Source: Promethearchaeota archaeon (GTDB lineage Archaea; Asgardarchaeota; Lokiarchaeia; Sigyniarchaeales; SOKP01). From it: 24,000 bases of DNA. The position numbers and the translations under genes were made by a program. The DNA lies in contig JAUWGH010000002.1 of NCBI GenBank assembly GCA_030606485.1, forward strand, positions 385,767 through 409,766, written 5' to 3'. Position 1 is the stretch's first letter. Each line of letters starts with the position of its first letter. A model generated the notes under the pieces. The model had not been told where the DNA came from. It was given only the letters and a program-made list of their open reading frames with translations, and did no database searches. Shown here one piece after another: positions 958 through 16,851 of this stretch.

Positions 958-972
958 AACGCCATAGAATAG

Positions 973-990: not shown

Positions 991-1038
991 AAAATCATAA
1001 TTTTTACAAAGTTTCGAAATAATTCGGAAACCCTTATT

Positions 1039-1095
1039 ATATCACTCAATCTTTAAGGAGAATATTCATACCTCATTAAGATCTCGAATCTGATC
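1039..1095. repeat. ~50-bp repeat, copy 1 (core agaatattcatacctca)
   Basis: Matches 3681-3730, with a 17-nt exact core at 1059-1075 vs 3700-3716 and a similar flank atatcac/atatcag. The minus strand reads GAGGT-ATG plus a 7-8 codon mini-ORF in both copies. Confidence 0.5.
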
Positions 1096-1173
1096 TAAGA
1101 TATATTGTCTTATTCATAATCCCATAATTGAAAAATATATTATAATTTTTATAAGTTATTAGAGATTATAGCG

Positions 1174-1267
1174 CGTCCGACATGGCGAAGGCGTCTGACA
1201 CTACAAAAAATGTAATTATTTTGAATATTGATTAAAAATATATTAATTTTGGTTGCACGTCTGACAC
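1174..1267. repeat. Three direct copies of CGTC(C/T)GACA(T/C)
   Basis: cgtccgacat at 1174-1183, cgtctgacac at 1192-1201 and cgtctgacac at 1258-1267. A related GACATGG occurs at 1179-1185 and 1284-1290. The region is non-coding and GC-rich against AT-rich flanks. Confidence 0.55.
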
Positions 1268-1365
1268 CCATCCATAGTGGTAGGACATGGAAAAATAAAA
1301 AATCCTAAATACAATGAATAAAAAAATTAAATAAAATTAGTGTTTTGAAATTTTTAAAAAATAGA

Positions 1366-1392
1366 TCAAATATCGTGGCAGCCGAGATATTT
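1366..1392. repeat. 25-bp imperfect palindrome, copy A (AAATATCGTGGC-A-GCCGAGATATTT)
   Basis: Half-site AAATATCKNGGC in inverted orientation around a central base. A second copy lies at 1778-1804. Confidence 0.65.
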
Positions 1393-1508
1393 TATTTTCT
1401 AAAAATAAGAGGAATAGATTATTTATTATTTATGAGACAATATTATTATTTTAATAATTAATTAACTTTAAATTTAAATATTATAAATAATAAAAAAATT
1501 GAATTGAT

Positions 1509-1721
1509 ATGCCATTTCACTTTGTTAAATCATTTATTATTGGAATAATATTTATCATCGCATTCTTAATTATCACTGCATTCCTCATATTCTCTGGAGT
1601 TTTAACATTTTCATTTGACCTCTTATTTTACCTTAGCATTCTTATAGGCTTTCTCTCAATAGCATTTCTAATAATTTTATTTGTTTTGGAATGTATTCTT
1701 AAAGAGTTAAGAGAGGAATAA
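1509..1721 (+). CDS. Hypothetical small hydrophobic protein (70 aa)
   Basis: ORF track; 2-3 predicted TM stretches. F/I/L-rich ORFs arise easily by chance in AT-rich DNA. Confidence 0.3.
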   Translation: MPFHFVKSFIIGIIFIIAFLIITAFLIFSGVLTFSFDLLFYLSILIGFLSIAFLIILFVLECILKELREE

Positions 1722-1777
1722 GAAAATTAAAGCTTTAATTTTAAATCATAAAATCCGAAAAATCGAAAGAAATCATA

Positions 1778-1804
1778 TCAAATATCGAGGCTGCCACGAT
1801 ATTT
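1778..1804. repeat. 25-bp imperfect palindrome, copy B (AAATATCGAGGC-T-GCCACGATATTT)
   Basis: Same architecture as 1366-1392, with 24 of 28 positions identical including the shared atc flank. The two copies are 412 bp apart and bracket ORF 1509-1721. Confidence 0.65.
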
Positions 1805-1820
1805 GCGATTCTTTATATTA

Positions 1821-2357
1821 TTAAGGTGTAAAAAAACCCATTATATCTGGAAGAAAACTTATTAAAATACTAATTGTTAAACCAAAAGAGAAAATTATAA
1901 CACTTAACATCAAAAATTTTCTAGCTCTATAAGTTATTTCATAATAATTCTTCTGATATTTTAATAAGGTATTTAATTGTAAATGATAATCGCTCTTAAA
2001 ATCTTCAGAATTCAAATCTTTAGAAATCTCTTTCTCATCTCCATTAAATATAGATTTATAAAAACAAATTGGATATTTCTCAATTTTGAACCTCTTTGCT
2101 GTACTATTCTTCTTAAGTGATAAATATAAATTATATATCGCAGAAATCATATATAAAATAAAAGAAATAGTCAATACAAAGAAGCCAAGAGAACTTAAAA
2201 GAAAATTAAAGATAGCATATAAAATATTATACGTGGTTATTAATGATAAAGTTAAGTTCATGAAATATCTTGTTTGAGTTCCATATAATCTCACAATTTC
2301 ATTTGCTCTTTCAATATTGAATTTCCAATCCTCTATTAAATCATGATTAATTGACAT
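1821..2357 (-). CDS. Hypothetical membrane protein (178 aa; helical N-terminus, central TM pair, C-terminal TM)
   Basis: ORF track with an ATG start; no family recognised. Confidence 0.5.
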   Translation of the reverse strand: MSINHDLIEDWKFNIERANEIVRLYGTQTRYFMNLTLSLITTYNILYAIFNFLLSSLGFFVLTISFILYMISAIYNLYLSLKKNSTAKRFKIEKYPICFYKSIFNGDEKEISKDLNSEDFKSDYHLQLNTLLKYQKNYYEITYRARKFLMLSVIIFSFGLTISILISFLPDIMGFFTP

Positions 2358-2511
2358 AAAAATCTAAGGTTTCTTTAATTTTTAAATAAAAATCTATTAA
2401 AAATAGACAGATCATTCTTATTATAAATTTTTATTATTGGGAAGTTAATAAATAATGAGATTACTTACATTTTTTAAAATCTGGGACTTTATTTTTTTAA
2501 TATTTTAATAA

Positions 2512-2700
2512 ATCATTAATTTATTGACCTCTTTTATATTAAGAAAGTGTGCAGATCCATTTGTTGTTGCTCTTGCTAAGGTACATAATCTTATAGTTGT
2601 TACGTATGAGAAATCTAAGATACCTCTTGCTTGCCAGCTAGTAGAGATAGATTGTATTAACTTTATTGAATTTCTAAGAAGAGAAAATCTACAATATTGA
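2512..2700 (+). pseudogene. C-terminal remnant of a PIN-like DUF4411-type nuclease gene
   Basis: The frame ending TGA 2698-2700 reads ..CADPFVVALAKVHNLIVVTYEKSKIPLACQLVEIDCINFIEFLRRENLQY. This resembles the remembered DUF4411 C-terminus (ADPflIAyAK..tVVT.E...KIPdVC...i.ci...eflr). Only about 60 codons are open, with no ATG. Confidence 0.45.
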
Positions 2701-2760
2701 TGGGTTTTTCATTATTCCTAAGAATTATTAAATTTTTATTTTCTAATAAATCACTCAGTT

Positions 2761-3420
2761 TTATACGGGAAATCTTATAAAAAAGTCTTTCAACCCCATA
2801 ATTAATAATTCTACTTGCTTTTCATTATATCTATCATAATGCGCATGTGCTGCATTATTTCTAATATCCAACCAAGCTGTAATTTGTTTTTGTTCTAATT
2901 TTGAATAAATGTTTTGTTTATACAAATCTGAATTCATTTGCTCTGCTTTTTTAGGTTTAAATTGTCCTGATGAAGTTTCTGTTTCAACTTCAATCTCATT
3001 TTTCTTACATAATTTCCTTAAATGTTCTTCTAAAGTACTGCCTGCAATAACCGCAGATGCATCTTTATAACCTTCTTTTAAGATATATTCTGACATTTCT
3101 AAAAAGTTAGAAAATAATTCTGCATGTATTAATTCTGATAAAGTTTTTAAATATCCTGATTTCAGATCATGGTATAAACCATCTAATACTCCCATAACAT
3201 GTTCTAAAATCGCCTCATCTTTCCATTTTTTCCATTTTTCAAGTGTTTCCTGAATCCTATAATAATATTCAGAACTTTTTCCAGTTGTTCTTACAATTAC
3301 TGCTTTTACTCTTGTAATTAAATTATTAGCTTTTTTAGGCCCTGGATGACTATTTTTTTCATAATCTTCCAAAATCTCTTTAATTTGGCTAATAAAAAAA
3401 TTATCTAATTTTTCACTCAT
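2761..3420 (-). CDS. HEPN-domain protein (TIGR02391/Hypoth_ymh-like), paralog 1
   Basis: C-terminal WLDIRNNAAHAHYD carries the Rx4H HEPN motif, preceded by LIHAELF...EGYKDA.AVIAGSTLEEHLRKLC. It is collinear with, and by eye roughly two-thirds identical to, 3737-4405. Confidence 0.75.
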   Translation of the reverse strand: MSEKLDNFFISQIKEILEDYEKNSHPGPKKANNLITRVKAVIVRTTGKSSEYYYRIQETLEKWKKWKDEAILEHVMGVLDGLYHDLKSGYLKTLSELIHAELFSNFLEMSEYILKEGYKDASAVIAGSTLEEHLRKLCKKNEIEVETETSSGQFKPKKAEQMNSDLYKQNIYSKLEQKQITAWLDIRNNAAHAHYDRYNEKQVELLIMGLKDFFIRFPV

Positions 3421-3680
3421 AATGATCTATATTTCTTTTATGAATGATTCATTAAAATTTTTTTAAATATCTTCAGTAAATAATGACATAAAGAAAATAT
3501 CATATTTTCTCTAACTTAGTAAACATTTAAACCATTAACAAAAGGATTTATTTGATTTTAATTAATAAATCATTTCAGAGTTATAGATTTTAAACTGATT
3601 CGTTCATAAAATATATACAATGTATATACAACCCTCGAATTTTTCCAAGTAATTTAGAAAAATTATTTTCCTCTTCGATC

Positions 3681-3730
3681 ATATCAGTCGAAATTAATCA
3701 GAATATTCATACCTCACTAAGAACTCTGAT
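3681..3730. repeat. ~50-bp repeat, copy 2
   Basis: See 1039-1095. It lies immediately 3' of the HEPN gene at 3737-4405 and about 280 bp upstream of the HEPN gene at 2761-3420. Confidence 0.5.
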
Positions 3731-3736
3731 TTAATT

Positions 3737-4405
3737 CTATACAGGATATCTTTTGAAAAAATCTCTTAAACCCAAAATTAGTATTTTCACTTGTTCATCA
3801 TTATATTCATCGTAATGCGCATGTGCTGAATTATTTCGAATGTCTAACCAAGCAGTTACTTGTTTTTGTTCCAATTTTGAGTATAAACTCTCTCTAGCTA
3901 AATCTGAATTCATTTGATCTGCTTTTTTCGGTCTAAGATCTCCTGATGATGTTATTATCTCAACATCGATCTCATTTTTCATACATAGTTTTCTTAAATG
4001 CTCTTCTAAAGTACTTCCTGCAATAACTGCAGCAGCATCCTTATAACCTTCTCTTAAAAGGTGTTCTGCCATTTCTAAGAAGTCAGAAAATAATTCTGCA
4101 TGAATCAATTCTGATAAAGATTTTAAATATCCTGCTTTTAAATCTTGATGTAAAGCTTCTACTGAACCAATAACAAATTGTAGTTTATGTCCTGGTGAAT
4201 AACCCCAAAGTTTTAATGCTTCCTCAATCCTCTTATAATATTGTGATTTATTTCCTGAAATTCTATCGACTGCAGCTGTTGCTCTAGTAATTAAACCATA
4301 AGTTTCTTCCCTATCACCTAATTTTCTACCTAACTTTATTTCTTTATATTTTTCTAAAATCTCTTCTAATTGTTTAATAAATATATCCGTTAAATCATTT
4401 GGCAT
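3737..4405 (-). CDS. HEPN-domain protein (TIGR02391/Hypoth_ymh-like), paralog 2
   Basis: WLDIRNNSAHAHYD Rx4H motif; full-length paralog of 2761-3420. Confidence 0.75.
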   Translation of the reverse strand: MPNDLTDIFIKQLEEILEKYKEIKLGRKLGDREETYGLITRATAAVDRISGNKSQYYKRIEEALKLWGYSPGHKLQFVIGSVEALHQDLKAGYLKSLSELIHAELFSDFLEMAEHLLREGYKDAAAVIAGSTLEEHLRKLCMKNEIDVEIITSSGDLRPKKADQMNSDLARESLYSKLEQKQVTAWLDIRNNSAHAHYDEYNDEQVKILILGLRDFFKRYPV

Positions 4406-4806
4406 TCTTAATTACCTTTATGTTCTCTAGTTTAATTTTGTCTTTAAGCATAAAAAATTTTTTATTAATCTCAAATTTTATTAGACTTTATCAATATTAT
4501 CAATTTTTTTCAATAATATTTTTTCGATCGAAGATTTTGACTTAGAGAAAATATGATATAAACTATAATTAATTATTCTCAGGAAGAAAAATCTCTACCG
4601 ACAAAACGATTTTTGATATGCAATCTATAGTTAATACTTAGATATAAAAAATTAAAAAATCATAATACCCCTAAAACTTTTGAGTAAAAATACCAACTAT
4701 TATTGTGATAGTTGTTATTTTTCAAAATCTAAACTCAAAATAATCAAAATAAAACAATTTTAGACAATGTTGGAAAGTTGGTATTATATTGTAAAAAATC
4801 TCTCAG

Positions 4807-5535
4807 GTGATTAAAATAGAAGTTTTCACACAACAAAATGATTTTAAAACATTCGAAGCCCAAATAATTAGCAATTTATATGAACAAAACCCTGATCTTA
4901 AAGAAAAAAAACAGGAACTAAAACTTAAGTTTGCATTGTTAGAAGTTCAAATGAATGAACTCATAAAGGTTGCGAAAAAAACTAATATGAAACATGCAAG
5001 AATGATTGAGACTCAATTAAATTGCGGTCTCAGGGTTAGTGAATTAATCCATTTATCAATTAATCAAGTAAATCTTGAGGGAAAGTTTCTAAAAATTGAG
5101 AAAAGAGAAAAGAATCTCTATGTTGATGCATTTAAGCCAAAAACGAAGAATAGCACCAGAATTCTTCCCCTAAGTGACAAAACCATCGACATTCTTAGAT
5201 AACAAATTGACAAAAAGCGAAATGGATATATATTTCCATCCAATAAAGGGGTCCATTTCAACAAGTCTTCTGTAATCAGATTTATTAATAAATATGCAAG
5301 AGAGAGCAGAACTATAGGATTTAATATTGGATCCCATTCTTTAAGAAGAACTTTTGCATCATATTTAATTACAGATCCAAAAAGATCACCAGGAGAGGAA
5401 CAAATCACAATTTCCGATATTTGTAGATTACTTGGCCATAAAAATATCAAAACCACAATGGAATATCTTTTCAATATTGTTAATTTAGTTGATTTCGAAA
5501 AAATAAGAACCTCTATAGATAGAATGCATAATTAA
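4807..5535 (+). pseudogene. Tyrosine recombinase/integrase interrupted by an in-frame TAA (5200-5202)
   Basis: One reading frame throughout. Upstream part has GLRVSELIHL (catalytic R region). After the stop come ..GYIFPS.., HSLRRTFAS (HxxR) and LLGHKNIKTTMEYL (H...Y). Frame checked: 4807, 5200 and 5224 are all congruent to 1 mod 3. Confidence 0.8.
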
Positions 5536-5564
5536 ATCTGATAATTAAGGAGAATAATCAAAAA

Positions 5565-5774
5565 ATGAAGAAAAAGAAGGAGACACTTGCTGAGAAAAAT
5601 GTTAAGGTTGCTATAGATATCCTCAAAGAGGCAGGAGCAGAGTTTAATAAAGAAACAGGAGAATGGGAATTGCCCTCCTCTTCAAAAGAGGGAATCAAAG
5701 TGCCCAAGAAATATGAAGGGGATTATTGTGGAGCAAATTTTGTGAAGAAAGATCGAAAACGCAGAGGATATTAA
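5565..5774 (+). CDS. Hypothetical small basic protein (69 aa)
   Basis: ORF track with an ATG start and AAGGAG about 14 nt upstream; no family recognised. Confidence 0.4.
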   Translation: MKKKKETLAEKNVKVAIDILKEAGAEFNKETGEWELPSSSKEGIKVPKKYEGDYCGANFVKKDRKRRGY

Positions 5775-5810
5775 AAAAGAAATTATAATATTGCCGACAA
5801 AAATATAATT

Positions 5811-6356
5811 ATGTCAAGACAAGAATCGAATAAAAAATTTCAGATTACAGGTGCTTTTTATATTATCTTTGCAATTATCTTTCTAGTGTCTGGGATCGGT
5901 ATTTTCGAGAATGCTTTCTTCGATTCAATATATGTATTTCAATATTTTGGTTATACTCTATTGATATTTGGAGGTTGAGAAGGATTAATTTTAATCTTCA
6001 TCTCAATTATCACTCTTTTCAGTTTTAAAATCAAGAGATCATTAATATTTGGGATAATTGGATGTGTTCTGATCGGAATTAATTTCATAATAATCCTAAT
6101 TGATCATTCTATGCGAATTGCGATTGGATATAGAGCATTTTTCGTTGCTCCTTTCTATATCACCCTCATAGCATGGATAATTCTCTGCTTCATCAATGGA
6201 ATTATATATATTCAAAAATCGAGGTTGGAGATCCCCATATCTAAAGAGGAGAAACCAGAAGAAAAAGCTCCCGAAGGAATGAAGTACTGTTCTTCATGTG
6301 GAGAAAAAATTAAAAAACAAGCAAACTATTGTGAGTTTTGCGGTTCAGAACAATAA
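5811..6356 (+). pseudogene. Multi-TM protein with a C-terminal zinc ribbon, interrupted by an in-frame TGA (5976-5978)
   Basis: ATG 5811 is in the same frame as track ORF 6111-6356. It reads ..LLIFGG*EGLILIF.. and ends CSSCGEKIKKQANYCEFCG. TGG to TGA (Trp to stop) is a plausible single change. Confidence 0.6.
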
Positions 6357-6420
6357 ATTAAAAAATATTTAAAATTTACTTTTTTTCTACACTCTATTTT
6401 TTTAAATTTTAATATAAAGA

Positions 6421-6460
6421 ATATTTATACTGAAAAAATAATATTTATACTGAAAAAATA
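6421..6460. repeat. Perfect 2 x 20-bp tandem repeat atatttatactgaaaaaata upstream of the ParB-like gene
   Basis: 6421-6440 equals 6441-6460 exactly. Each unit contains a TTTATA TATA-like element. It ends 17 bp before ATG 6478. Confidence 0.7.
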
Positions 6461-6477
6461 GTAAAAGGGTGAAAATT

Positions 6478-7794
6478 ATGAAAATAAAATTTGAAAATTT
6501 AGTACCAAATAAATATAATCCACGCAAACTTTTTAGAGGAGCATCTATGGAAGAGCTTAAAGAATCTACTAAGGATTTCGGACTTATAGAGCCATTAGTA
6601 GTGAGACAGCTCAAGAACGGAAAATATGAAGTTGTTGCTGGAATGCGTAGATATCATGCTTTGAAGGAGCAAAAAATAGAAGAAGTAGAATGTAATGTTC
6701 TAGATTTAACCAACAAACAAGCTATTGACGTTGCTTTTATCGAAAATATCCAAAGACAAGATTTAACTGCAATAGAAGAAGCTAATATGTTTTTAAATCG
6801 TTTAAAAATAAATCCTGAATTTTTGAAGAAATTCAAAAAATCGGAAACCGTTTCCGATTTTTTCTCTAAAAACTTAATATCTGGAGATTCCAAATTTACT
6901 AAAGAACTTGGTGATACCTATCATATAAACCCAAAAACAATCTTTAATAAACTTAGTTTATTATGTCTCCCAGAGACATTACAGAATGCTATTGAAATTG
7001 ATGAATTACAATTAAGAATTGCTTATAATATAGCAAGATTGCGTCAAATAGAAGATAATGATCTTGCTCAGAAATCTATGCTTGAAATATATAATGACTA
7101 TAAAAAAGAGAGAGATTCGATAAGTTTAGATGAAATAAAAATGAGAGTATCCAAAAAAATTGAGTATTATAAATCCAAAAAAGATGAACAAGAAGAAATT
7201 ACTGAACAGAGAATTCAAGAACTAAAAAGGAAAATAAAAGAGACAAAAGAGAGCAAAGATGAAATATTGAAGAAATTAGCTAAGAAAATAATAGAAATTC
7301 ATAATAATGAAGCATTTACCGATATTGATTTCTCTGAAATGGAGATTATTGAATATGATGATGATAAAGAGTTATTTGAAAAAAATGATAGAGAAACCAT
7401 TTTTTCAAAAGGTGAGAAAGTTTCTGAATTTTTGGAGGAAGAAGATAAAAAATATAGGGGAAATGAAATATATGAACGAATAGTAGAAAATATTGATGAT
7501 TTAGAAAATAAAATCTCAGATATTCGATTACTAATAACTAGGGTTAAAGAAAAAAATATTACGCAATGTCCTTTCTGCTATGCAAGGATTGACCTACCTG
7601 AGATTAATAAAAAAACAGAGGAATACCAAGATGAATTAGAAGACTTAAAATCACAACGTTCTAAAATAGCAGGTATAAGTGGTTTTATTTCAGACAGACG
7701 GAAGGCAATAAATAAGATATACAGTGCTTTCGAATCTAAGGATAAATTTATAGAAGACTTTGAAAAAGAACTGGAGGACTTAAGAATTGACTAA
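6478..7794 (+). CDS. ParB N-terminal (ParB/Srx) domain protein with a long coiled-coil C-terminus
   Basis: GLIEPLVV..VAGMRRYHAL (GxRR box) and ENIQRQDLTAIEEA (ENxQR box). The E/K-rich coiled coil contains a lone CPFC. GGGTGA lies 6 nt upstream of ATG 6478; the track starts at GTG 6469. Confidence 0.8.
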   Translation: MKIKFENLVPNKYNPRKLFRGASMEELKESTKDFGLIEPLVVRQLKNGKYEVVAGMRRYHALKEQKIEEVECNVLDLTNKQAIDVAFIENIQRQDLTAIEEANMFLNRLKINPEFLKKFKKSETVSDFFSKNLISGDSKFTKELGDTYHINPKTIFNKLSLLCLPETLQNAIEIDELQLRIAYNIARLRQIEDNDLAQKSMLEIYNDYKKERDSISLDEIKMRVSKKIEYYKSKKDEQEEITEQRIQELKRKIKETKESKDEILKKLAKKIIEIHNNEAFTDIDFSEMEIIEYDDDKELFEKNDRETIFSKGEKVSEFLEEEDKKYRGNEIYERIVENIDDLENKISDIRLLITRVKEKNITQCPFCYARIDLPEINKKTEEYQDELEDLKSQRSKIAGISGFISDRRKAINKIYSAFESKDKFIEDFEKELEDLRID

Positions 7795-8575
7795 ACCTAC
7801 ATATAAAGAAGTTAAACCAGACGAAAAAGTTCCATTTGAAAAAGTAGAAGTTCATAGAATCTCAATTGATCCAGTCTTATCTCTTCTAGAATTATTAACT
7901 ATAATAAATGAAAGGGAAAAAGAAGGGGTAATAAAGTTATTAGATATCTCTTTTGAAAGCTCTCCCCAATCAGCAAAATATGGCTCCAGAATTGGGTTTG
8001 GTAAAGATGAAAGACTTATTGTAAGAAGGATGGAAGAGACAATGTATGTTCCTAAAAGAACATTTAAGTTTACAAAAGATTATACAATTGAGGACGCTAT
8101 TGAAGCTTTTGAAGATTTAGACCAATATCTTATAGAAACCAAACATGACTATACTTTAGACATATATCCCACTTCTCTTAATGTTTTGGATATGGGATCT
8201 AAACCAGAACGTGCACAAATGATTATAAGATTTGGGAAGAAAAGAAAAGTTGATAAAAATAGTGAAATAGGTTTAGAATTAAGTGGAGCTCAAATAATGC
8301 CACTTGATGCTATCAAACTTTTTATAGCCATAAGAGATAAAAGAACTAAAAATTGGAGAAAAGGATCAATCCCATCAAGAATTGCTGATAAAATGAAAAA
8401 ATATGTTGATGGAACCTATTTTATTGAAGCTGATGACATTAAAAACTACACAAGACATATTTATAAATCCGATTTTACAATTAAGACAACTTGTATAGTA
8501 GGTAAAGAGAGAAAAACTTTCGATAGATACACACCAATTCCTGGTGGCAAATGTAGAAAAGTCCCTAAAGATTAA
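7787..8575 (+). CDS. Hypothetical protein (262 aa), translationally coupled to the ParB-like gene
   Basis: TTG start overlaps the upstream stop by 8 nt; no family recognised. Confidence 0.55.
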   Translation: MTKPTYKEVKPDEKVPFEKVEVHRISIDPVLSLLELLTIINEREKEGVIKLLDISFESSPQSAKYGSRIGFGKDERLIVRRMEETMYVPKRTFKFTKDYTIEDAIEAFEDLDQYLIETKHDYTLDIYPTSLNVLDMGSKPERAQMIIRFGKKRKVDKNSEIGLELSGAQIMPLDAIKLFIAIRDKRTKNWRKGSIPSRIADKMKKYVDGTYFIEADDIKNYTRHIYKSDFTIKTTCIVGKERKTFDRYTPIPGGKCRKVPKD

Positions 8576-8709
8576 TTTTTTATTTTTTACTTTCAGTCTC
8601 CCCTCTCAGTGTCCTATAAATAGATTAGAGTGCGTGGACTTACTGATTTAACAAATATTTATATTATTGATCATCCTAATTATTTTTGTCGATAAATAAA
8701 TTAACAAAA

Positions 8710-9179: not shown

Positions 9180-10199
9180 TTAAATATTAATTTTACTAAT
9201 CGTTTGTTCAACTTGATTCTTTTCTATAAATTCCTCGAGTGTTCTTACATTATTTGGTATTCCTTCTCTAACACCAGTATCACTACATTCTAAAGCAGAC
9301 ATAGCGGTTGCAATTTTACATAATTTCGGTAGTGAAAAATTCATAAATAGTGAAATAATTATTCCACTCATAAACGCATCTCCAGCTCCCGTCGTATCTT
9401 CAATGGGAGTGTTAAATATATTAGTTCGAATCATCTCATTTCCATCGAAAACAGTGGAACCATTAGCACCATCAGTTATTGAAATTAAATCAACACCCAT
9501 TTTATGAATATCCATTAAAATATCAATAGTTGATAACTTATTTGTAAATTCTGAAGCTTCCTCTTTATTGAAAGAAACCACATTGGATTTGCTAATTAAT
9601 TTTTTTGCCCATTGAGGATTATTTTTAATTATTGACATACTGGGTGCGGCAAAAACTTTTTTTCCAGCATTTTTAGTTAAATCAATTGCTTTATCTATAG
9701 CCTTACATCCACTTTCTGAAGTTAATGAAGTCCAAGCGAAGCCATCTATGTCTTTAAATATTTCTTCCTTCACATTTGTTGGAGTTATTAAATTGTTTGC
9801 GCCTTTGTACGCCAAGATACTTCGATCTCGTCCCCATTCGGTTTTTAGAATTAATGAAAAGGCAGTAGAATCCTCATCCGTTTGAATAACATTACTTACA
9901 TCAACATTTCTCTTTTTCAAATCATCAAGACATATGGAAGCTGAAAAGTCCTCACCTATAACTCCGATATATATACCCTTCATGCCGATCATTGATAAAT
10001 CAGCAGCAATATTTGTTGCAGAACCTCCAGGAACAAATTTGATATTTTCAACATTCAATTTGCGCGAATATTCAATGGCAGTATATTTTTTGATAACTTC
10101 TTTTTCAAATAATTCAAATCTTAAGATATCTTTTATTTGAATGATACAATCGAGTGTGCAACTGCCAATTGTTACAATTTTTAAATCAGATAAGTTAAT
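9180..10199 (-). CDS. PfkB-family carbohydrate kinase (ribokinase-like); 5' end extended beyond the track ORF
   Basis: Motifs GGSATNIA and TGAGDAF. The frame stays open upstream of the track's TTG (10056-10058) and encodes the canonical N-terminal strand LKIVTIGSCTLDCI. The only start candidate is ATT 10197-10199, 6 nt after GGTGA. Confidence 0.75.
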   Translation of the reverse strand: MNLSDLKIVTIGSCTLDCIIQIKDILRFELFEKEVIKKYTAIEYSRKLNVENIKFVPGGSATNIAADLSMIGMKGIYIGVIGEDFSASICLDDLKKRNVDVSNVIQTDEDSTAFSLILKTEWGRDRSILAYKGANNLITPTNVKEEIFKDIDGFAWTSLTSESGCKAIDKAIDLTKNAGKKVFAAPSMSIIKNNPQWAKKLISKSNVVSFNKEEASEFTNKLSTIDILMDIHKMGVDLISITDGANGSTVFDGNEMIRTNIFNTPIEDTTGAGDAFMSGIIISLFMNFSLPKLCKIATAMSALECSDTGVREGIPNNVRTLEEFIEKNQVEQTISKINI

Positions 10200-10541: not shown

Positions 10542-10853
10542 GTGAATTTTGATAAGTTATATTTAGTTTTAAATAAATGCGGGTTTTTTAACATTCTTCA
10601 TGTTCTTTCACTGTATAAAGATTATAGAGTAGAAAAAGGAGAATTTTACAAGAAACTTACTGAGTTCAGTAATTTTAATTCTTTTCTTCGTATAAAAGAT
10701 AAATTGCTGGAGAAAGAATTAATATTGGTTGATAGACATAATGAAGAAGAGTATATCGAGCTTACTAAGAAAGGCAGATCCGTATACGATAATCAAGAGA
10801 TCAATTCAATCTATTTAAAGAAAAAAGTAATTAAAATATGTAGACCAAGATGA
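10542..10853 (+). CDS. Small putative winged-helix DNA-binding protein (103 aa)
   Basis: ORF track with a GTG start. The wHTH-like pattern (..FYKKLTEFSNFNSFLRIKDKLLEKELILVD..EEEYIELTKKG) is a weak call. Confidence 0.4.
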   Translation: MNFDKLYLVLNKCGFFNILHVLSLYKDYRVEKGEFYKKLTEFSNFNSFLRIKDKLLEKELILVDRHNEEEYIELTKKGRSVYDNQEINSIYLKKKVIKICRPR

Positions 10854-10933: not shown

Positions 10934-11662
10934 CTAAATCTTTCCAATAATAGCTAAGTAAAGAGCAATTTCATATTCACCATCGATATTGATAAGGTCA
11001 TCTAGTTCTTTTTGATTATAAGCGACAATTGCACAAGTACCAGCATCAATTGCACTACAAGCAAGATAAAGGTTTTGGCAGATATGTCCAACACCAATTA
11101 AGATATCTTTAAGAGAATCATCTCCATATCTCCATTCTGTTCTATAGGGTCTACAACTCCAGATAAAAACAACAGCAGCAGTACCTATAAAGGCTTGTCG
11201 ATTACAAACTTCTACGATCTTTGACGGAAACTCTGGTTCATTAGTATTTAATGTCAATAGTTTATGTTCTATAGCTAAATAACGGTATAATCCGGGGGGT
11301 ATTTCGTTTACACGATTAATTATTAAGTATGTTTCATATGGATGCATAGCTCCTCCAGAAGGAACAGTTCGTAATGTTACGAGCCCCCCACGATCAAGTT
11401 TCTTTACTCCTTGTGTTGTCCAGAGCAAAAAAGATAATTCTTCTATTGTTAATGGTGATTTAAGATAATTTCGATGACTTTCTCGATTATTAATTGCCTT
11501 AATTAAAGAAATATTACCTAATTTAATATTCTCAGGTACTACTAGATCAATTAATTTAGCATCTTTAGGATAGGGCTTCTGGATAGGAGGAATGGGTAAG
11601 CCTTTCATTTGATCTGTTTCATCTTCTAAAATTGGATTTTTAAGATATTTACGATATTCCAT
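10934..11662 (-). CDS. SagB-type dehydrogenase / nitroreductase-superfamily protein
   Basis: NRESHRNY..PLTIEELSFLLW..RTVPSGGAMHPYETYLII..PPGLYRY motifs are typical of the SagB/ThcOx family. Confidence 0.75.
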   Translation of the reverse strand: MEYRKYLKNPILEDETDQMKGLPIPPIQKPYPKDAKLIDLVVPENIKLGNISLIKAINNRESHRNYLKSPLTIEELSFLLWTTQGVKKLDRGGLVTLRTVPSGGAMHPYETYLIINRVNEIPPGLYRYLAIEHKLLTLNTNEPEFPSKIVEVCNRQAFIGTAAVVFIWSCRPYRTEWRYGDDSLKDILIGVGHICQNLYLACSAIDAGTCAIVAYNQKELDDLINIDGEYEIALYLAIIGKI

Positions 11663-11916: not shown

Positions 11917-12082
11917 ATCAGATAAGTTAATGTTTTCTCACCTATTTTTATTTGGAATAGTAAATAGTCATAAAAATCAGATTTAAGTTTAAAGCTAAAT
12001 TTTTTAAATTTAAATTTTGTTAAAAAGGCAAAAAAAAATTATTTAGATTCTATTTCTGTACCGCACATCGGACAAATAGTTA
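11917..12082. repeat. 166-bp direct repeat, copy 2
   Basis: See 10185-10350. It contains the real stop and last 14 codons of the 12039-12428 gene and an orphan copy of the PfkB SD and first codons. Confidence 0.9.
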
Positions 12083-12428
12083 TTCCTTTTTTAATCTCTC
12101 CTCCGCAAAAACGACAATAGAGTATTTTTTCACTATATACTACGGGTGCTTTTGGGAGTTTTGTAGTTTGAGACACACTCTGAGCGCGTTTCCAATTAGG
12201 TGGATAACTAAGAATTCTCGTAGTCTTGATGGTTTTTTGATTACATCTATCACAACGTCCTCTTTTTAGATTTCTACTACAAGAATTGCAAATAACTCTC
12301 TCACAAGAGGGACATAAGCGAATTTCAACCCATGGATTTTTTTTTGCAATATCACGTCCACAAATATCACATGGCAGTGGGGTTTTCGGTTCTTTATTAA
12401 CCTTAAAAAATTTTTTTATGAAAGACAT
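12039..12428 (-). CDS. Multi-zinc-finger protein: N-terminal 8-Cys (4 x CxxC) module plus C-terminal CxxC-x10-CxxC zinc ribbon
   Basis: C20-x2-C-x15-C-x2-C-x4-C-x2-C-x8-C-x2-C62, then YCRFCGGEIKKGITICPMCG. ATG start lies 21 nt downstream of the ESCRT-III stop on the same strand. Confidence 0.7.
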   Translation of the reverse strand: MSFIKKFFKVNKEPKTPLPCDICGRDIAKKNPWVEIRLCPSCERVICNSCSRNLKRGRCDRCNQKTIKTTRILSYPPNWKRAQSVSQTTKLPKAPVVYSEKILYCRFCGGEIKKGITICPMCGTEIESK

Positions 12429-12449
12429 TTTAATATTTTTAATTACATT

Positions 12450-13097
12450 TTAGTCGTCAGATTCTTTCAATTCTTTAAGCTCATTTTCTAAATCTTTAAT
12501 TCTTTGATCCCCGCCCACTGTAGGGAGTTGTATTCCTGTTTCAACCGAAATTTCAGCATCAATTTCTCCTAATACATTCATAACATCTTCATTCGAAACA
12601 CTTGTGTCAACATTGATATTTTCAATTCCATCTGCAGTAATTTCCTCAGTAACTTGAAAATCTTCGATTCCTATATCAATGTCTTTGATTGTTTCGGTTA
12701 TTTCAGGAATAGATATCTGTGATTTTAATCCTGAAACGGAACCAGCTATTGCTTTCATAATTCCAGCAACATCTTTAATTGCGGAGGCTTGTTCTAACTT
12801 AAATTGCAATCCTTCAAGATTTAATTTAAAGGTTGAAATTCCTTTTGACCATTTTTTAAATTGTAAATAACCCCGGGCATGAACTTCAGCACCTTTCATA
12901 TCTCCTTCTTTTCGAAATTTAACAGCTTTAGTTCTTGCTTGTTTTGCTTTCGCTTCAAGTTTTTTTGCTTGTCTCTCTAAGCGTTTGTTAAAGATTTTAA
13001 GTTTAACGGTAACGGATCGAACATCTCGATCTTTTGATCTACCACCACTTAACCAACCACTTACGTCTTTTAGAAAACCCAAAATGATTCTACTCAA
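12450..13097 (-). CDS. ESCRT-III (Snf7/CHMP family) protein
   Basis: Basic helical N-terminal hairpin (LERQAKKLEAKAKQARTKAVKFRKEGDMKGAEVHARGYLQFKK), an acidic C-terminal half and a terminal amphipathic helix RIKDLENELKELKESDD (MIM-like). Divergent from Vps4. TTG start. Confidence 0.85.
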   Translation of the reverse strand: MSRIILGFLKDVSGWLSGGRSKDRDVRSVTVKLKIFNKRLERQAKKLEAKAKQARTKAVKFRKEGDMKGAEVHARGYLQFKKWSKGISTFKLNLEGLQFKLEQASAIKDVAGIMKAIAGSVSGLKSQISIPEITETIKDIDIGIEDFQVTEEITADGIENINVDTSVSNEDVMNVLGEIDAEISVETGIQLPTVGGDQRIKDLENELKELKESDD

Positions 13098-13242: not shown

Positions 13243-14460
13243 ATGAGCTCTTTAGATTCTAAGTTGTTTTCTTTTGCAATGAAAGAAGCAAAAGAAGCAG
13301 TTGAGTATGATAAAAAGGCTGAATATCAAAAAGCCATTAATAAATATAGTAGAGCAGCTGAAATATTAATTCAATTTGCAAAATACAATAAAAATCCAAG
13401 TTTGCAAAAACTATGCCAAGAAAAAATTCACGAATATGTCTCCCGTGCTAAGACATTAAAAAGAAGTTTGAAACCTTATAAAAAAGGAAGGATTTCAACT
13501 CGTAAGAGAGTAACTAAAAAGGGAAAAGATTCAGAAGAAATCGAAGAAGAGGAGATTTTAACCAAAGAGCAACAAGAACTTAGAGAAGTTATTTCAGGAA
13601 CAATCATCACCGAATTACCTGATATTCGATGGGACGATATTGCAGGATTAGTGGAATGTAAACAATCTCTTAGAGAAGCAATAGTTTTGCCTATAATGAG
13701 ACCAGAATTATTTACCGGTGCTAGAAAGCCATGGTCTGGTATTCTTTTATATGGTCCTCCAGGTTGCGGAAAAACTCTCCTTGCTCAAGCGGCAGCAACA
13801 GAATGCGATGCAACTTTTTTTAGCGCATCAGCAGCTGAATTATTATCAAAATGGCTTGGGGAAAGTGAGAAATTAATTAGCTCATTATTTAAATTAGCAA
13901 GACTTGAAGCACCAAGCATCATATTTTTTGATGAAATTGATTCTATTACGACTTCGAGGGGATATGGATCGGAGAGTGGTGGAGAGAGAAGAATCAAAAC
14001 TCAATTATTAGGTGAAATTCAAGGTCTTAAATCAAGGACTGAAAAATTACTTTTAATTTTAGGTGCGACAAATCGACCTTGGGATATTGATACAGCAATG
14101 TTGCGAAGATTTGAGAAAAAAATTTATGTCCCTCTCCCAGACGAAGAAGCGAGAGAAGTGATTTTTAAAATACATACAGCTGGGGTAAATCTCTCACTTA
14201 CAGATAATGATTTTAGAGAACTTGGAGAAAAAACTGCGGGATATTCTGGATCTGATATTGCAAATGTTTGTAGAGAAGTGATTATGAGACCGATAAGAGA
14301 GTTAGATATGAGTGGAAAAATAACTGCCGAAGCAGAGGAAATTATCGTTAGAGATGTAAATATAGAAGATTTTAACAAAACACTTAAAAAAATAAAACCA
14401 ATTGTATCTGAAAAAGAAATAAAGAGATACCATGAGTGGTTTGAACAATTTGGTGAATGA
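13243..14460 (+). CDS. vps4: Vps4-type AAA+ ATPase (N-terminal MIT domain plus a single AAA cassette)
   Basis: MIT-like AKEAVEYDKKAEYQKAINKYSRAAEILIQ..IHEYVSRAKTLK, Walker A GPPGCGKT, Walker B IIFFDEIDS, and a Vps4-like C-terminal helix ..YHEWFEQFGE. Confidence 0.92.
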   Translation: MSSLDSKLFSFAMKEAKEAVEYDKKAEYQKAINKYSRAAEILIQFAKYNKNPSLQKLCQEKIHEYVSRAKTLKRSLKPYKKGRISTRKRVTKKGKDSEEIEEEEILTKEQQELREVISGTIITELPDIRWDDIAGLVECKQSLREAIVLPIMRPELFTGARKPWSGILLYGPPGCGKTLLAQAAATECDATFFSASAAELLSKWLGESEKLISSLFKLARLEAPSIIFFDEIDSITTSRGYGSESGGERRIKTQLLGEIQGLKSRTEKLLLILGATNRPWDIDTAMLRRFEKKIYVPLPDEEAREVIFKIHTAGVNLSLTDNDFRELGEKTAGYSGSDIANVCREVIMRPIRELDMSGKITAEAEEIIVRDVNIEDFNKTLKKIKPIVSEKEIKRYHEWFEQFGE

Positions 14461-14489: not shown

Positions 14490-15371
14490 ATGGAAAGACA
14501 AAAAGCTAAAGAAGTCCCAAAAGAAGAAATTGCTGTATCAGATGAAAAAATTGAAGAACTAAGGAAAGAATTAGAAGATCTAAGAAAAAAAAAAGAAATA
14601 AAATTACAAGCAGAACAAAAAAAGGTAAAGGAAAAAGTAGAACCAACAATTTCCATCGATTTAGATGATATAGAAAAAAGATTAGATGCTATTGAAGAAT
14701 TTCTTGAAGAAAAATCTCAAGCAACCGAGGTTATAATTAAAGCAAAAGATTTGGATGAGATTGAGAAAGAACTTCAGTCTATCGAAAGCGAAATTGTAAT
14801 TGAACCAAAGGTTATAGAAAAGGAATTAACTTCTTATGAAATATTAATTAAAGAGCATACATGGCTTGAAGAAGCTAGATATGAATATATGTTTTCTGCT
14901 CCAGATACAAAGAAAAATGCTAAAGATTATCAATCTTGGTTAATTGAGTGGAGCCAAGTAATTTATGATTATGCCCGAATATCGATATTGCACGTTCTCT
15001 ATATTAGAAAATTAAATGCTGAGAAACCATTTTCTAAACTACGCAATAGAGATGGCGCAATCGCTGCAATAGCTCAAAAATTAGTGGATCAAAATATTGG
15101 AGTATGGTTAAATAAAAAAAAAAAAGAAACATTAAGAATTTATTGGAAAACTTTAGATGAGTGGGCAGAAGAAATACTTAATTGGGCACGGGAAAACGGT
15201 AAATTAGAACCAATTCTAACTTTTGAAATTCGCGAGTCTGGGGAACTTTTTGCAGATTTGCCCAAAAGGGATTTAACACGAATATTTAAAAGATTAGAAA
15301 AAGAAGGCAAAGGAGAAGTAATTAAATCTGAAGAAGGAGATATTACTTTTAAAATAAATTTGAATTATTAA
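14490..15371 (+). CDS. ESCRT-II Vps25-like protein with a ~120-aa N-terminal E/K-rich coiled-coil extension
   Basis: Residues ~125-293 align by eye to human VPS25: YQSWLIEWSQVIYDYAR vs QLAAWCSLVLSFCR; LVDQNIGVWLNKKKKETLRIYWKTLDEWAEEILNWARENG vs LRKKGNLEWLDKSKSSFLIMWRRPEEWGKLIYQWVSRSG. It starts 29 nt after vps4, with AGGTG upstream. Confidence 0.85.
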   Translation: MERQKAKEVPKEEIAVSDEKIEELRKELEDLRKKKEIKLQAEQKKVKEKVEPTISIDLDDIEKRLDAIEEFLEEKSQATEVIIKAKDLDEIEKELQSIESEIVIEPKVIEKELTSYEILIKEHTWLEEARYEYMFSAPDTKKNAKDYQSWLIEWSQVIYDYARISILHVLYIRKLNAEKPFSKLRNRDGAIAAIAQKLVDQNIGVWLNKKKKETLRIYWKTLDEWAEEILNWARENGKLEPILTFEIRESGELFADLPKRDLTRIFKRLEKEGKGEVIKSEEGDITFKINLNY

Positions 15372-15440: not shown

Positions 15441-15995
15441 TTATTTATTTGCTTCTTTCATGATATAGTGAAAGATACAGCGTTTCTTACCTGTAGCCTG
15501 ACGCTCTTTTAGGATGAGCTTTATATCTGGGTTGTATCCTTCAAGGATACAATAGTCCACATATTTGCAATAGATTTTGGCATAATCACCTAAACCCCAA
15601 TCTTCAGCGCCATTATAAAAAGTGCAATTTTTCACTTTTATAATAAAATCACTGTCTTCTATGCTCGCTATTGGTTTAAAGTTTTTTATTGAATCTATGT
15701 CTGAATATATTAACCAGTTCTTGAATGTTAAGGGTTTCCCCTCTGCTCTTACCCTTTCAGCAATTCTTTTTCCCCTTTCCCTTCCAAAATATTCCACAGC
15801 CTCCTTAAGGAGCGCCTCGCCATCTTCAGGTCCTAGCTTCTCGATTATAAATTTGGCAACACTAGAAAACAACTGAGAGGCTAAACCAAATCCCGGTGTC
15901 TGATATTTATCTCCAATCTCTATTTTTTGGGGGAGAACATCATCTAAATATTCGAAATCAAAACCTTTTTCATTTTCTCTTTTTAAATCATCCAT
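15441..15995 (-). CDS. L-2-amino-thiazoline-4-carboxylic acid hydrolase-like (ATC_hydrolase family) protein
   Basis: The C-terminal pattern C.F...AEDWGLGD...IYCKYVDYCILEGYNPDIKL...ATGKKRCIFHY resembles the remembered PF14196 pattern. Confidence 0.55.
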   Translation of the reverse strand: MDDLKRENEKGFDFEYLDDVLPQKIEIGDKYQTPGFGLASQLFSSVAKFIIEKLGPEDGEALLKEAVEYFGRERGKRIAERVRAEGKPLTFKNWLIYSDIDSIKNFKPIASIEDSDFIIKVKNCTFYNGAEDWGLGDYAKIYCKYVDYCILEGYNPDIKLILKERQATGKKRCIFHYIMKEANK

Positions 15996-16107: not shown

Positions 16108-16851
16108 CTAAGAGATCGAAGGAAAATACCACTTCTTTCCTCTTAAGTATGACTCATCTTTTTTGGCAAAACCACTGGCTTCTAAAGAATTTAATGCCCT
16201 CAATGCTCTTTCTTGAGACCATGATAATTCTGAGCATGCATCTTCTAAAGAAATAAAACCCTTTTCTGAAGCTAATGAAATTACTTTTGCCTCATCATCG
16301 GTATGTTGAATGGAGAAAAATCTAACTTCAATAACTCCATCATCAAGCTCCCGAATATTAGGAATTACTTTCCTTTTCTTTAAAAGATACATAGCTTTAA
16401 TTACATCTTCAATCTCTAAATGATTCATGAGAATACCTGTATTCACAATTTCAAATACGTCAGAGATCGGCATAATACCTCCAGTTTCTTCTTTTTCCAT
16501 TAAAACTCTTTGGTATGCTAACATACCTAATTTTTCATGATCAATTTTTCTCTTTTTTCTTAAGACGTCTATTTCTTCAATTCTTTCAGTAATAATTCGC
16601 GAAGTAGGAATATCAAATTTCCTCTGTAGTTCTTTAATTTCATCTCTTAATTCAGGATCTAAAGCAAGAATTACTCCGTGTTTGATTGCAATTTCTCTTA
16701 TTTTGTCTTTGGCAAATTCTCTTGTTTTTGCTTCTTCTTCAAGTTCTTTTTGCTTTAACTCAATGCCCTTCCTCTTCATTGCTTCTTTTAGATCAATATC
16801 ATCCTCTATTTTGCGAATCCCCATATAGTTCTCCGACTTTTTTATATGCAC
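16108..16851 (-). CDS. ESCRT-II EAP30-domain protein (Vps22/Vps36-like)
   Basis: The C-terminal tandem winged helix aligns by eye to human SNF8: GGIMPISDVFEIV.. vs GGLITLEELHQQV..; SLASEKGFISLEDACSELSWSQERALRALNSLEASGFAKKD vs QLAEKNGYVTVSEIKASLKWETERARQVLEHLLKEGLAWLD; ends KWYFPSI vs HYWLPAL. An alternative start is Met10 (16824). Confidence 0.88.
   Translation of the reverse strand: MHIKKSENYMGIRKIEDDIDLKEAMKRKGIELKQKELEEEAKTREFAKDKIREIAIKHGVILALDPELRDEIKELQRKFDIPTSRIITERIEEIDVLRKKRKIDHEKLGMLAYQRVLMEKEETGGIMPISDVFEIVNTGILMNHLEIEDVIKAMYLLKKRKVIPNIRELDDGVIEVRFFSIQHTDDEAKVISLASEKGFISLEDACSELSWSQERALRALNSLEASGFAKKDESYLRGKKWYFPSIS

Follow-up and report, generated by a model that had tools for sequence, protein, structure and literature searches.

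The window (the whole 24,000-nt stretch of DNA analysed) carries several ESCRT genes. On the minus strand, an ESCRT-III gene of the Snf7 family (12450..13082; Pfam PF03357, 62.8 bits, E 4e-17), with its stop codon at 12450-12452, is followed by an ORF with an ATG start (12039..12428, minus strand, stop codon at 12039-12041) that encodes a protein of 129 aa with three predicted zinc sites, called the zinc protein below. The spacer between the ESCRT-III stop and this ATG, read directly from the DNA, is AT-rich and measures 21 nt (12429..12449, minus strand), just as a sequence-only reading had placed the two genes on the same strand. That reading left the strand unstated; the zinc gene lies on the minus strand. 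Directly after its stop codon, a run of nine T residues (12030..12038, minus strand; A9 on the plus strand) is found, a candidate oligo-T terminator. Divergent from ESCRT-III, the plus strand encodes Vps4 (13243..14460; Pfam MIT, AAA, AAA_lid_3 and Vps4_C), followed by a Vps25-like ESCRT-II subunit (14490..15371, plus strand; Pfam ESCRT-II, E 6.7e-12), and an EAP30/Vps22-like ESCRT-II subunit lies on the minus strand (16108..16851; Pfam EAP30, E 1.2e-11). For ESCRT-III, a TTG start at 13082 (210 aa) is more likely than the TTG at 13097; its orthologues are 210 aa long, and the one at locus L003 starts with ATG. Based on synteny with cog.001760 of Lokiarchaeum GC14_75, as given in Table S2 of Makarova et al. 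(2024, PMC10936438), this ESCRT-III is of the Vps2/24 type.

In public databases, the zinc protein is labelled only as 'hypothetical protein [Ca. Lokiarchaeota archaeon]'. It contains 12 cysteines arranged as six CxxC pairs (positions 20, 23, 39, 42, 47, 50, 59, 62, 105, 108, 119 and 122). The N-terminal spacing is C-x2-C-x15-C-x2-C-x4-C-x2-C-x8-C-x2-C and the C-terminal spacing C-x2-C-x10-C-x2-C, both exactly as first read. All 12 cysteines are invariant in relatives with 95-55% identity (alignment A1) and also in distant relatives with 22-34% identity (alignment A3). Every orthologue in the 55-95% identity range is 123-129 aa long. Compared to four orthologues, the zinc gene has a dN/dS of 0.19-0.38, against 0.02-0.10 for ESCRT-III. 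Because of the invariant cysteines and this dN/dS, the ORF is not a chance one and the possibility that it is not a gene can be ruled out; by these measures it is a genuine gene under purifying selection. A viral origin was considered as well and dropped, because no relative turned up when viral contigs were scanned using the alignment of the family. Scanning metagenomes with alignment A1 retrieved four further members of the clade only.

Three parts can be distinguished in the protein, all encoded on the minus strand: an N-terminal RING-like binuclear (C4C4) domain supported by the family profile and an AF2 model (residues ~17-82; 12183..12380), a variable linker predicted to be disordered (residues 83-102; 12123..12182) and a C-terminal C4 ribbon of the DZR/zinc_ribbon type, which falls just short of the Pfam DZR cut-off (residues 103-129; 12042..12122; C105, C108, C119 and C122). 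No conserved columns are present in the linker in either alignment, and pLDDT drops below 50 at residues 85-101. An aromatic-Pro-x-x-aromatic motif, YPPNW, is conserved at residues 75-79. The protein is strongly basic, with a pI of 9.65.

For the N-terminal domain, a profile (A4) was built from 17 family domains, in all of which the eight cysteines are invariant. Its top match in the PDB is the RING of RNF4 (2xeu_A, E 2.6e-6; tandem construct 4ap4, E 3.7e-12), with ligands 1, 2 and 5-8 in register, followed by matches with E-values of 5e-4 or worse. As a control, 2000 decoy sequences were used in which Cys and His were kept and the other residues shuffled. The RNF4 score of 28.0 bits lies above all of these (mean 5.2, sd 4.6, maximum 22.6). 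A PDB search with the single protein returned no RING, the best match being noise (KKT2, E 0.083); the RING signal is therefore seen only with the family profile. None of the Pfam RING models reaches its gathering score, neither for the window protein (zf-RING_5, 11.6-12.8 bits with a cut-off of 27.9; Prok-RING_4, 10.9-12.4 bits with a cut-off of 27) nor for any family member, the best of which scores 23.6 bits against a cut-off of 27. Sub-threshold matches to Prok-RING_4, zf-RING_5 and B-box models are found among the family members.

The AF2 model of this domain (pLDDT 81.5, compared to 67 for the full-length model) predicts a knuckle and a beta-hairpin (36-39/44-46), with Cys pair 3 marking the start of a helix; hairpin and helix are arranged as is typical of a treble clef. 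Foldseek searches of the PDB and BFVD with the full-length and domain models, used qualitatively only, give almost exclusively RING domains, but every E-value is 0.036 or higher (none at or below 0.001). Some of these RING matches have a TMq of 0.56-0.61 and an rmsd of 2.0-2.5 Å over 53-56 columns. At the level of the family profile, the N-terminal domain is thus RING-like by sequence similarity, and the RING likeness first suggested by the cysteine spacing is supported by the RNF4 match (E 2.6e-6), the decoys and the RING-dominated Foldseek lists. The modelled secondary structure and these Foldseek lists would fit a cross-brace zinc pairing (pairs 1+3 and 2+4).

A canonical RING follows the pattern C-x2-C-x(9-39)-C-x(1-3)-[CH]-x(2-3)-C-x2-C-x(4-48)-C-x2-C, and a gap of four residues between ligands 4 and 5 is known only from C4C4 RING variants. 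The zinc protein has loops of x15 and x8, a C-x2-C at ligands 3-4 and a gap of x4 between ligands 4 and 5, outside the canonical range of 2-3. Like RNF4 and the RING models (2xeu, 4ap4; PF14447 Prok-RING_4, PF14634 zf-RING_5), it has eight zinc ligands in four pairs. RNF4 and the zinc family have C-x-[IV]-C in common; in both, ligand 5 is preceded by a hydrophobic-aromatic residue and the fourth residue past ligand 6 is hydrophobic. The wider zinc family shares CPxC as well. The likeness extends to the predicted hairpin-plus-helix layout and the RINGs listed by Foldseek. It departs from canonical RINGs in having cysteines as its only ligands (C4C4), in the four residues that separate ligand 4 from ligand 5 and in Pfam scores that stay below the gathering score. 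The RING initially chosen for comparison was that of CNOT4, which like the zinc protein has cysteines as its only ligands and four residues from ligand 4 to ligand 5. RNF4 is closer. Since CNOT4 is not among the 60 best PDB profile matches, there is no specific relationship with it, and the loop lengths of the zinc protein differ from those of CNOT4 too.

These similarities raise the question of whether the protein functions as an active E3 of the RING type or as an E3-like scaffold. ESCRT-III/Vps4 or cargo would then receive a Lokiarchaeal E2~ubiquitin-like conjugate, and ubiquitylation would be directly coupled to membrane scission. Two of the classical E2-contact positions in RING-E2 interfaces are ligand 1 +2 and ligand 6 +4, where hydrophobic residues are expected. 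Both positions, I22 and L54 in the zinc protein, are hydrophobic throughout A4, which supports an E3 function, as do the family-level similarity to RNF4, exceeding the best decoy, and the CPxC at ligand pair 4 in the wider zinc family. Moreover, Lokiarchaea encode ubiquitin-like proteins, E1 and E2 (Makarova et al. 2024, Table S2, PMC10936438; Hatano et al. 2022, PMC9192718). However, in the ESCRT-linked clade the proline of pair 4, an E2-contact residue, is replaced by an invariant Asp60 (CD[RKI]C), and the linchpin position 63, after the last cysteine of the domain, is N, D or G, with no conserved Arg/Lys. The sub-threshold scores of all Pfam RING models also argue against E3 function, and the Lokiarchaeal ubiquitin operons in Table S2 of Makarova et al. 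(2024, PMC10936438) have a membrane-associated RING finger of their own. In addition, no ubiquitin, E1 or E2 gene is located within the window. To our knowledge, no E3 activity is known for this zinc protein family. An active E3 is therefore considered unlikely. Less likely still is a stronger proposal, in which an archaeal E3 of the RING type, or a scaffold for E2 docking, would be translationally hard-wired to ESCRT-III and provide a direct ubiquitin-to-ESCRT-III link bypassing ESCRT-I/II.

The C-terminal finger of the window protein scores 26.2 bits for Pfam DZR (cut-off 27.3) and 17.9 bits for Zn_Ribbon_1 (cut-off 25), with a weak Prok-RING_1 match. Several relatives (P0011, P0012, P0035, P0051, P0082, P0155 and P0157) pass the DZR/Zn_Ribbon_1 cut-offs. 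Its spacing had been compared to that of NZF/RanBP2 fingers, such as those of Vps36 and Npl4, which would make it a ubiquitin reader recognising ubiquitylated cargo for ESCRT. The C-x2-C-x10-C-x2-C spacing is the one feature shared with these fingers and the sole support for such a function. The signature W-x-C-x2-C-[TF]-x-N is absent, as the actual sequence, YCRFCGGEIKKG, lacks the W and the N of the fuller pattern W-x-C-x2-C-x3-N-x6-C-x2-C and also the ubiquitin-binding T-F dipeptide. Across the 129-aa protein, Pfam gives no zf-RanBP match even at E <= 1; for the finger, DZR, Zn_Ribbon_1 and Prok-RING_1 match best. Bacterial and archaeal multi-ribbon proteins, numbering in the hundreds, match this C-terminal ribbon only, and unrelated membrane proteins of bacteria carry the same ribbon type, again by the hundreds. 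The NZF identity is rejected on motif grounds and a ubiquitin-reading role is highly improbable; by its motif, the finger most resembles the generic DZR type of prokaryotic ribbon. With DZR/zinc_ribbon_2-type ribbons (PF12773, PF13240) it shares the CxxCG-x10-CxxCG finger, at about 1 bit below the DZR cut-off. Rather than belonging to an N-terminal array on a membrane protein, the ribbon stands alone at the C-terminus of a soluble protein of 129 aa.

Two ESCRT-associated zinc protein groups were also compared. Makarova et al. (2024, PMC10936438) describe Asgard ESCRT-I/II-like proteins with triple Zn ribbons (cog.011556 Znr_CC_PH_SB, cog.002441 and cog.006820) and interpret these modules by analogy with the zinc fingers of Vps36. 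As described there, these proteins share with the zinc protein three zinc sites, an Asgard origin and an association with ESCRT genes, but they are 430-650 aa long and carry PH, coiled-coil, steadiness-box or winged-helix domains, which the zinc protein lacks. No such long triple-ribbon protein is present among the 150 best matches of the family profile. The second group is the B-box-like domain of ANCHR/ZFYVE19 (PF22586), a eukaryotic VPS4/CHMP4C regulator. Both domains are binuclear and, as predicted for the zinc protein, of the cross-brace type, both belong to ESCRT-associated proteins, and PF22586 weakly matches 14/17 family N-domains (best E 2.3e-4; 14.3 bits for the window protein against 27). 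Unlike ANCHR/ZFYVE19, the zinc protein has neither a FYVE domain nor a MIM, and the match probably reflects generic treble-clef similarity. Searches with Pfam and NCBIfam detected no Snf7, EAP30/Vps25 winged-helix, steadiness-box, UEV or MIT-AAA domain in the 129-aa protein, in line with the first suggestion, which placed it outside the canonical ESCRT components.

The order Snf7, a spacer of 19-22 nt and the zinc gene is found in the window and at loci L001-L008, L018/19 and L023-25. All contigs of the clade that have upstream DNA retain the pair, with ESCRT-III proteins that are 76-100% identical, and the spacer length remains at 19-22 nt despite diverged spacer sequences. The zinc gene is absent from four sister Lokiarchaeal lineages (L020, L021, L027 and L028), in which ESCRT-III shows 59-64% identity and the gene order EAP30-Vps25-Vps4<>ESCRT-III-pfkB is unchanged throughout. 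In 2/4 of these, an Arf-family GTPase occupies the slot of the zinc gene. Conservation of the pair in related genomes, whose absence the first reading would have taken as a refutation, is thus restricted to one Lokiarchaeal clade: it holds within the clade and fails in its sisters, which counts in part against that reading. On this gene-order evidence, the zinc gene is not a conserved member of the Asgard ESCRT gene cluster, and as the clade is narrow, the persistent adjacency could be simple inheritance. In alignment A5, no clade-specific motif or indel separates ESCRT-III orthologues with a zinc partner from those without. A literature search found no earlier description of a RING or zinc protein beside ESCRT-III in Lokiarchaea or in Asgard archaea at large.

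Co-transcription of the zinc gene with ESCRT-III, as first suggested from their proximity, is plausible. Inspection of the window spacer (12429-12449) revealed no oligo-T run and no Shine-Dalgarno-like motif. Oligo-T runs end transcription in archaea, and the T9 run at 12030-12038 is a candidate terminator closing a two-gene ESCRT-III/zinc unit. Since the zinc gene ends in this run, it is most likely on the ESCRT-III transcript. A T8-T9 run is also found after the zinc gene at L005-L008 and L023, and shorter T5-T7 runs at L001 and L003. Some orthologous spacers contain T6-T9 runs themselves (L003, L026), at which transcription could terminate between ESCRT-III and the zinc gene. An internal TATA-like promoter may be present within the AT-rich spacer.

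Another explanation is that the zinc protein is an incidental neighbour, i.e. a general small basic zinc-finger protein acting on nucleic acids or the ribosome or as a regulator (COG2888/HVO_0758-like), which occupies a permissive slot and has no ESCRT function. The variable content of the slot behind ESCRT-III, which holds the zinc gene in one clade and an Arf-family GTPase or no gene in others, points in this direction. In the neighbourhoods examined, none of the distant family members adjoins ESCRT genes and one of them adjoins aEF-2; together with the sister lineages lacking the gene, this means that the family is not intrinsically tied to ESCRT. Zn-ribbon RNA-binding proteins of the archaeal small ribosomal subunit are matched weakly, with all four Cys pairs aligned (6sw9_C, 9fny; E 1e-3 to 0.3), and the high pI would fit as well, as would weak NCBIfam matches to HVO_0758 (14.6 bits) and PRK14890 (13.4 bits). 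However, the latter scores compare with cut-offs of 70 and 61, respectively, the ribosomal matches are about 1000-fold weaker than that to RNF4, and Foldseek gives RINGs, not ribosomal ribbons. Furthermore, the spacer stays at 19-22 nt although the downstream flanking genes change. An incidental neighbour is therefore somewhat unlikely, at roughly one chance in four.

The explanation we tentatively prefer, although its chances fall slightly short of even, is that of a genuine three-zinc protein with a RING-like domain and a ribbon, which would serve ESCRT-III/Vps4 as a lineage-specific accessory or adaptor with no catalytic role. The insertion of the zinc gene between the Vps4-linked (Vps2/24-type) ESCRT-III and pfkB would date to the ancestor of a single Lokiarchaeal clade of genus or family rank, and the gene would since have stayed 19-22 nt behind ESCRT-III. 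The protein would most likely be translated from the ESCRT-III transcript, residues ~17-82 forming a divergent RING-like C4C4 binuclear treble clef, followed by a disordered linker and the DZR-type ribbon. The basic RING-like domain might provide a surface for protein-protein (or protein-membrane) contacts, for instance with the acidic C-terminal half of ESCRT-III, and the tethered ribbon might hold a second partner. The charge complementarity (pI 9.65 for the zinc protein versus 4.05 for the C-terminal half of ESCRT-III) would fit such a contact. Against this explanation speak the narrowness of the clade, the four sister lineages that manage with no zinc gene, the unrelated surroundings of distant family members, ESCRT-III orthologues that look alike with or without the partner, the T6-T9 runs in some spacers and the sub-threshold Pfam RING and Foldseek scores.

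The cell-biological role of Asgard ESCRT and its connection to ubiquitin are still open (Souza et al. 2025, PMC11804906; Hatano et al. 2022, PMC9192718). If expressed together with ESCRT-III, this small RING-like protein would be a cheap and testable handle on Asgard ESCRT, because a protein of 129 aa is suited to pull-downs, NMR and in vitro ubiquitylation. It also adds an uncharacterised small archaeal RING-like-plus-ribbon family of ~20 sequence clusters, missed by current Pfam RING models. Since its ESCRT linkage is limited to one narrow Lokiarchaeal clade, it has little bearing on the Asgard ancestor or eukaryogenesis. Should the protein be an E3 scaffold after all, this one Lokiarchaeal lineage would represent a natural experiment in the coupling of ubiquitin to membrane scission before eukaryotes.

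The ATG-initiated ORF at 12039-12428 (minus strand) is a real gene. Its 129-aa product, here called the zinc protein, bears the sole name 'hypothetical protein' in public records. Rereading the ORF exactly reproduced the cysteine spacings that the sequence-only reading had noted for both zinc regions, C-x2-C-x15-C-x2-C-x4-C-x2-C-x8-C-x2-C followed by C-x2-C-x10-C-x2-C, with the 12 cysteines at positions 20, 23, 39, 42, 47, 50, 59, 62, 105, 108, 119 and 122. A search of 5.8 billion proteins retrieved five orthologue clusters (95-55% identity, 126-129 aa). Across the close orthologues, 12/12 cysteines, the NLKRGRCD stretch and the YPPxWKR motif are invariant, and residues 82-102 are freely variable. 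With Nei-Gojobori dN/dS values of 0.19-0.38 against four orthologues, the zinc gene is under purifying selection, weaker than that on the adjacent ESCRT-III gene (0.02-0.10).

Directly upstream lies this Snf7/ESCRT-III gene (12450-13082, minus strand; Pfam 62.8 bits; alternative TTG start at 13097). The shared strand and the 21-nt gap behind the ESCRT-III stop, both noted earlier, were borne out on the window, and this spacer holds no T-run. The gene for Vps4 (MIT-AAA-Vps4_C; 13243-14460) is divergent from the pair, and a Vps25-like ESCRT-II gene (14490-15371) and an EAP30/Vps22-like gene (16108-16851) lie beyond it. The GC content of this Lokiarchaeon (Promethearchaeia) is ~0.29. According to Table S2 of Makarova et al. 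(2024; PMC10936438), Lokiarchaeum GC14_75 has the same order, CYTH-RsmB-NIP7-EAP30-Vps25-Vps4<>ESCRT-III, and its ESCRT-III counterpart is listed there as asCOG cog.001760, 'Vps24 family'. An ATC_hydrolase-family gene (15441-15995, minus strand) intervenes between Vps25 and EAP30; locus L018 has an unannotated 195-aa gene in this position, and the two ESCRT-II genes directly adjoin in L001, L020, L021, L027 and L028. In the window and L006, a nitroreductase (10934-11662, minus strand) and small ORFs, including 10542-10853 (plus strand), lie between the zinc gene and pfkB (window 9180-10058); in L001, L003 and L018, pfkB comes directly after the zinc gene.

Elsewhere, positions 1-5500 have a low GC content (0.24-0.26 over 1001-5000) and ORFs without Pfam matches. 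A truncated Phage_integrase ORF is found at 4807-5202 and a ParB_N-domain protein at 6469-7794; positions 1-8600 may be what is left of an integrated element. The window is free of tRNA genes throughout. The 549-aa protein at 22126-23775 (plus strand), with SBBP beta-propeller repeats, bacterial TSP3 repeats and a Ca-binding toxin-like domain, is probably secreted or surface-located.

The order Snf7, 19-22 nt spacer, zinc gene recurs in every contig of the clade with upstream DNA (the window, L001-L008, L018/19 and L023-25), at identities of 76-100% for ESCRT-III and 55-100% for the zinc protein. This pairing persists despite differing spacer sequences and downstream genes. In the window, a T9 run (12030-12038) abuts the zinc-gene stop. 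Together with the T-run-free spacer, this fits a two-gene transcript closed by a putative archaeal oligo-T terminator at 12030-12038. T-runs do occur in the spacers of L003 (at 3509-3529, with a T6 run) and L026 (at 1-33, with a T9 run), where they could act as archaeal terminators uncoupling the two genes, so read-through is not assured everywhere; an internal promoter in the AT-rich spacer is also possible. The proposed operon partnership with ESCRT-III is plausible.

Conservation of the pair across Asgard genomes, also envisaged, did not hold. The zinc gene is absent from four sister Lokiarchaeal lineages (L020, L021, L027 and L028) in which EAP30-Vps25-Vps4<>ESCRT-III-pfkB is intact. In ESCRT-III they share 59-64% identity with the window, with a gap in identities from 64% to 76%, and ESCRT-III proteins with and without a zinc partner differ by substitutions only. 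In L020 and L028 the very slot of the zinc gene is taken by an Arf/Ras-family small GTPase (5776-6330 and 4783-5337), L027 has one after pfkB (5887-6411), and in L021 pfkB stands directly behind ESCRT-III. These GTPases are 174-184 aa long (Pfam Arf/Ras/Roc; NCBIfam small_GTP). The slot behind Vps4-linked ESCRT-III hence holds either a trafficking-type GTPase or the zinc protein, or is empty. Distant family members adjoin no ESCRT gene; their neighbours lack Pfam matches, except for one archaeal EF-2. These absences indicate a lineage-specific insertion, not a conserved Asgard ESCRT component. That the zinc gene lies behind ESCRT-III by chance, its product having some general role as a small zinc finger, is considered somewhat unlikely; weak matches to archaeal ribosome-associated Zn-ribbon proteins (E 1e-3 to 0.3) speak for it.

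Next, the N-terminal domain. When a profile of 17 family N-domains was compared with all PDB sequences, the best match, clearly ahead, was the RNF4 RING (2xeu_A single domain, E 2.6e-6; 4ap4 tandem construct, 3.7e-12), followed by matches at E 5e-4 or worse. Ligands 1, 2 and 5-8 are in register; outside the ligands, the sequences agree for instance in C-x-I-C, V-[FY]-C-x-x-C, L-K behind the start of the helix, and C-P-x-C-x-K-K. RNF4 scored 28.0 bits, against a mean of 5.2 (sd 4.6, maximum 22.6) for 2000 decoys with Cys/His fixed and all else shuffled, scored with the same HMM. Pfam matches of individual family N-domains all remained below threshold. Among them are Prok-RING_4 (up to 23.6 bits; cut-off 27), zf-RING_5, ANCHR-like B-box, FYVE and Rubicon-homology domain, which we take to be binuclear treble-clef families, and also DZR, the most frequent, matching 15/17. 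AlphaFold2 gave pLDDT 78-87 at residues 21-70 of the full protein (linker < 50), and pLDDT 81.5 with pTM 0.65 for the N-domain with the 17-sequence alignment. In this model, strands 36-39 and 44-46 flank Cys pair 2 and a helix begins inside pair 3; the predicted knuckle-hairpin-helix order is the one seen in treble clefs and RINGs. Foldseek matches (PDB, BFVD) were almost exclusively RING/U-box, none at E <= 0.001, e.g. TRIM32, cIAP2, TRIM23, IDOL, EL5, RNF4 and XIAP, and viral IE2, Siah-like and 'RING-type' proteins (best viral matches: TMq 0.56-0.61, rmsd 2.0-2.5 A over 53-56 columns; E > 0.001). The suggested RING-like character is therefore well supported by family-level sequence evidence, but qualitatively by predicted structures.

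The C-terminal finger had been likened to NZF fingers. This identity was rejected, since the signature W, N and T-F are missing and the resemblance is one of spacing only; the finger is a DZR/Zn_Ribbon_1-type ribbon (26.2 bits; cut-off 27.3; relatives pass). An NZF-like ubiquitin reader is accordingly highly improbable. Among 1.84 billion cluster representatives, most profile matches cover only this ribbon and belong to membrane proteins of bacteria and archaea with several ribbons each. About a dozen relatives match end to end (P0011, P0012, P0032, P0035, P0051 and P0106, plus P0155-157 from a separate search; 115-160 aa, 22-34% identity), with all 12 cysteines kept. Along with the larger members P0068 and P0082, they share C-x2-C-G, C-x2-C-x4-C-x2-C and usually [KR]-C-P-x-C, then aromatic-Pro-x-x-aromatic, a variable linker and a C4 ribbon. 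In P0068 (250 aa, on a 2653-bp NCBI contig), two tandem copies of the N-domain precede a Pro/Gln-rich linker and the C-terminal ribbon, indicating that the RING-like domain is an independent module; P0082 (208 aa) has extra ribbons. Precomputed annotation assigns P0035 and P0156 to Pfam PF26037.1, which could be a recent family covering this domain; the local Pfam copy does not report that model. No relative was found on the viral contigs scanned.

I22 (ligand 1 +2) and L54 (ligand 6 +4) are hydrophobic and conserved. From general knowledge of RING-E2 complexes, we take these, the CPxC proline and the position after the last Cys to be E2-contact/linchpin sites. The proline of the wider family is replaced by an invariant Asp in the ESCRT-linked clade (C59-D60-x-C62), where the linchpin position is N, D or G. 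With neither residue kept, catalytic E3 function appears possible but not favoured, the putative ubiquitin link is weakened, and an active E3 or E2-docking scaffold is unlikely.

The closest known kind is a RING finger, of which prokaryotic families are already in Pfam, joined to a common prokaryotic zinc ribbon. Among Asgard proteins resembling ESCRT-I/II, Makarova et al. (2024; PMC10936438) describe some whose 'triple Zn-ribbon' modules are joined to a PH, coiled-coil, steadiness-box or winged-helix domain. Compared by domain content, the zinc protein likewise carries three zinc sites, but it lacks all of these fused domains. No zinc or RING protein behind ESCRT-III is described in the ESCRT literature searched. 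The zinc protein is divergent, and its genomic association with ESCRT-III is new but narrow. Tentatively, and with slightly less than even confidence, we propose as the likeliest reading a lineage-specific, non-catalytic ESCRT-III/Vps4 accessory or adaptor, made from the same mRNA as ESCRT-III. Interactions would take place on the surface of the very basic RING-like domain (pI about 10), for which the C-terminal half of ESCRT-III, acidic at pI 4.05, is an obvious candidate partner; the ribbon, on its flexible tether, would engage a second one.
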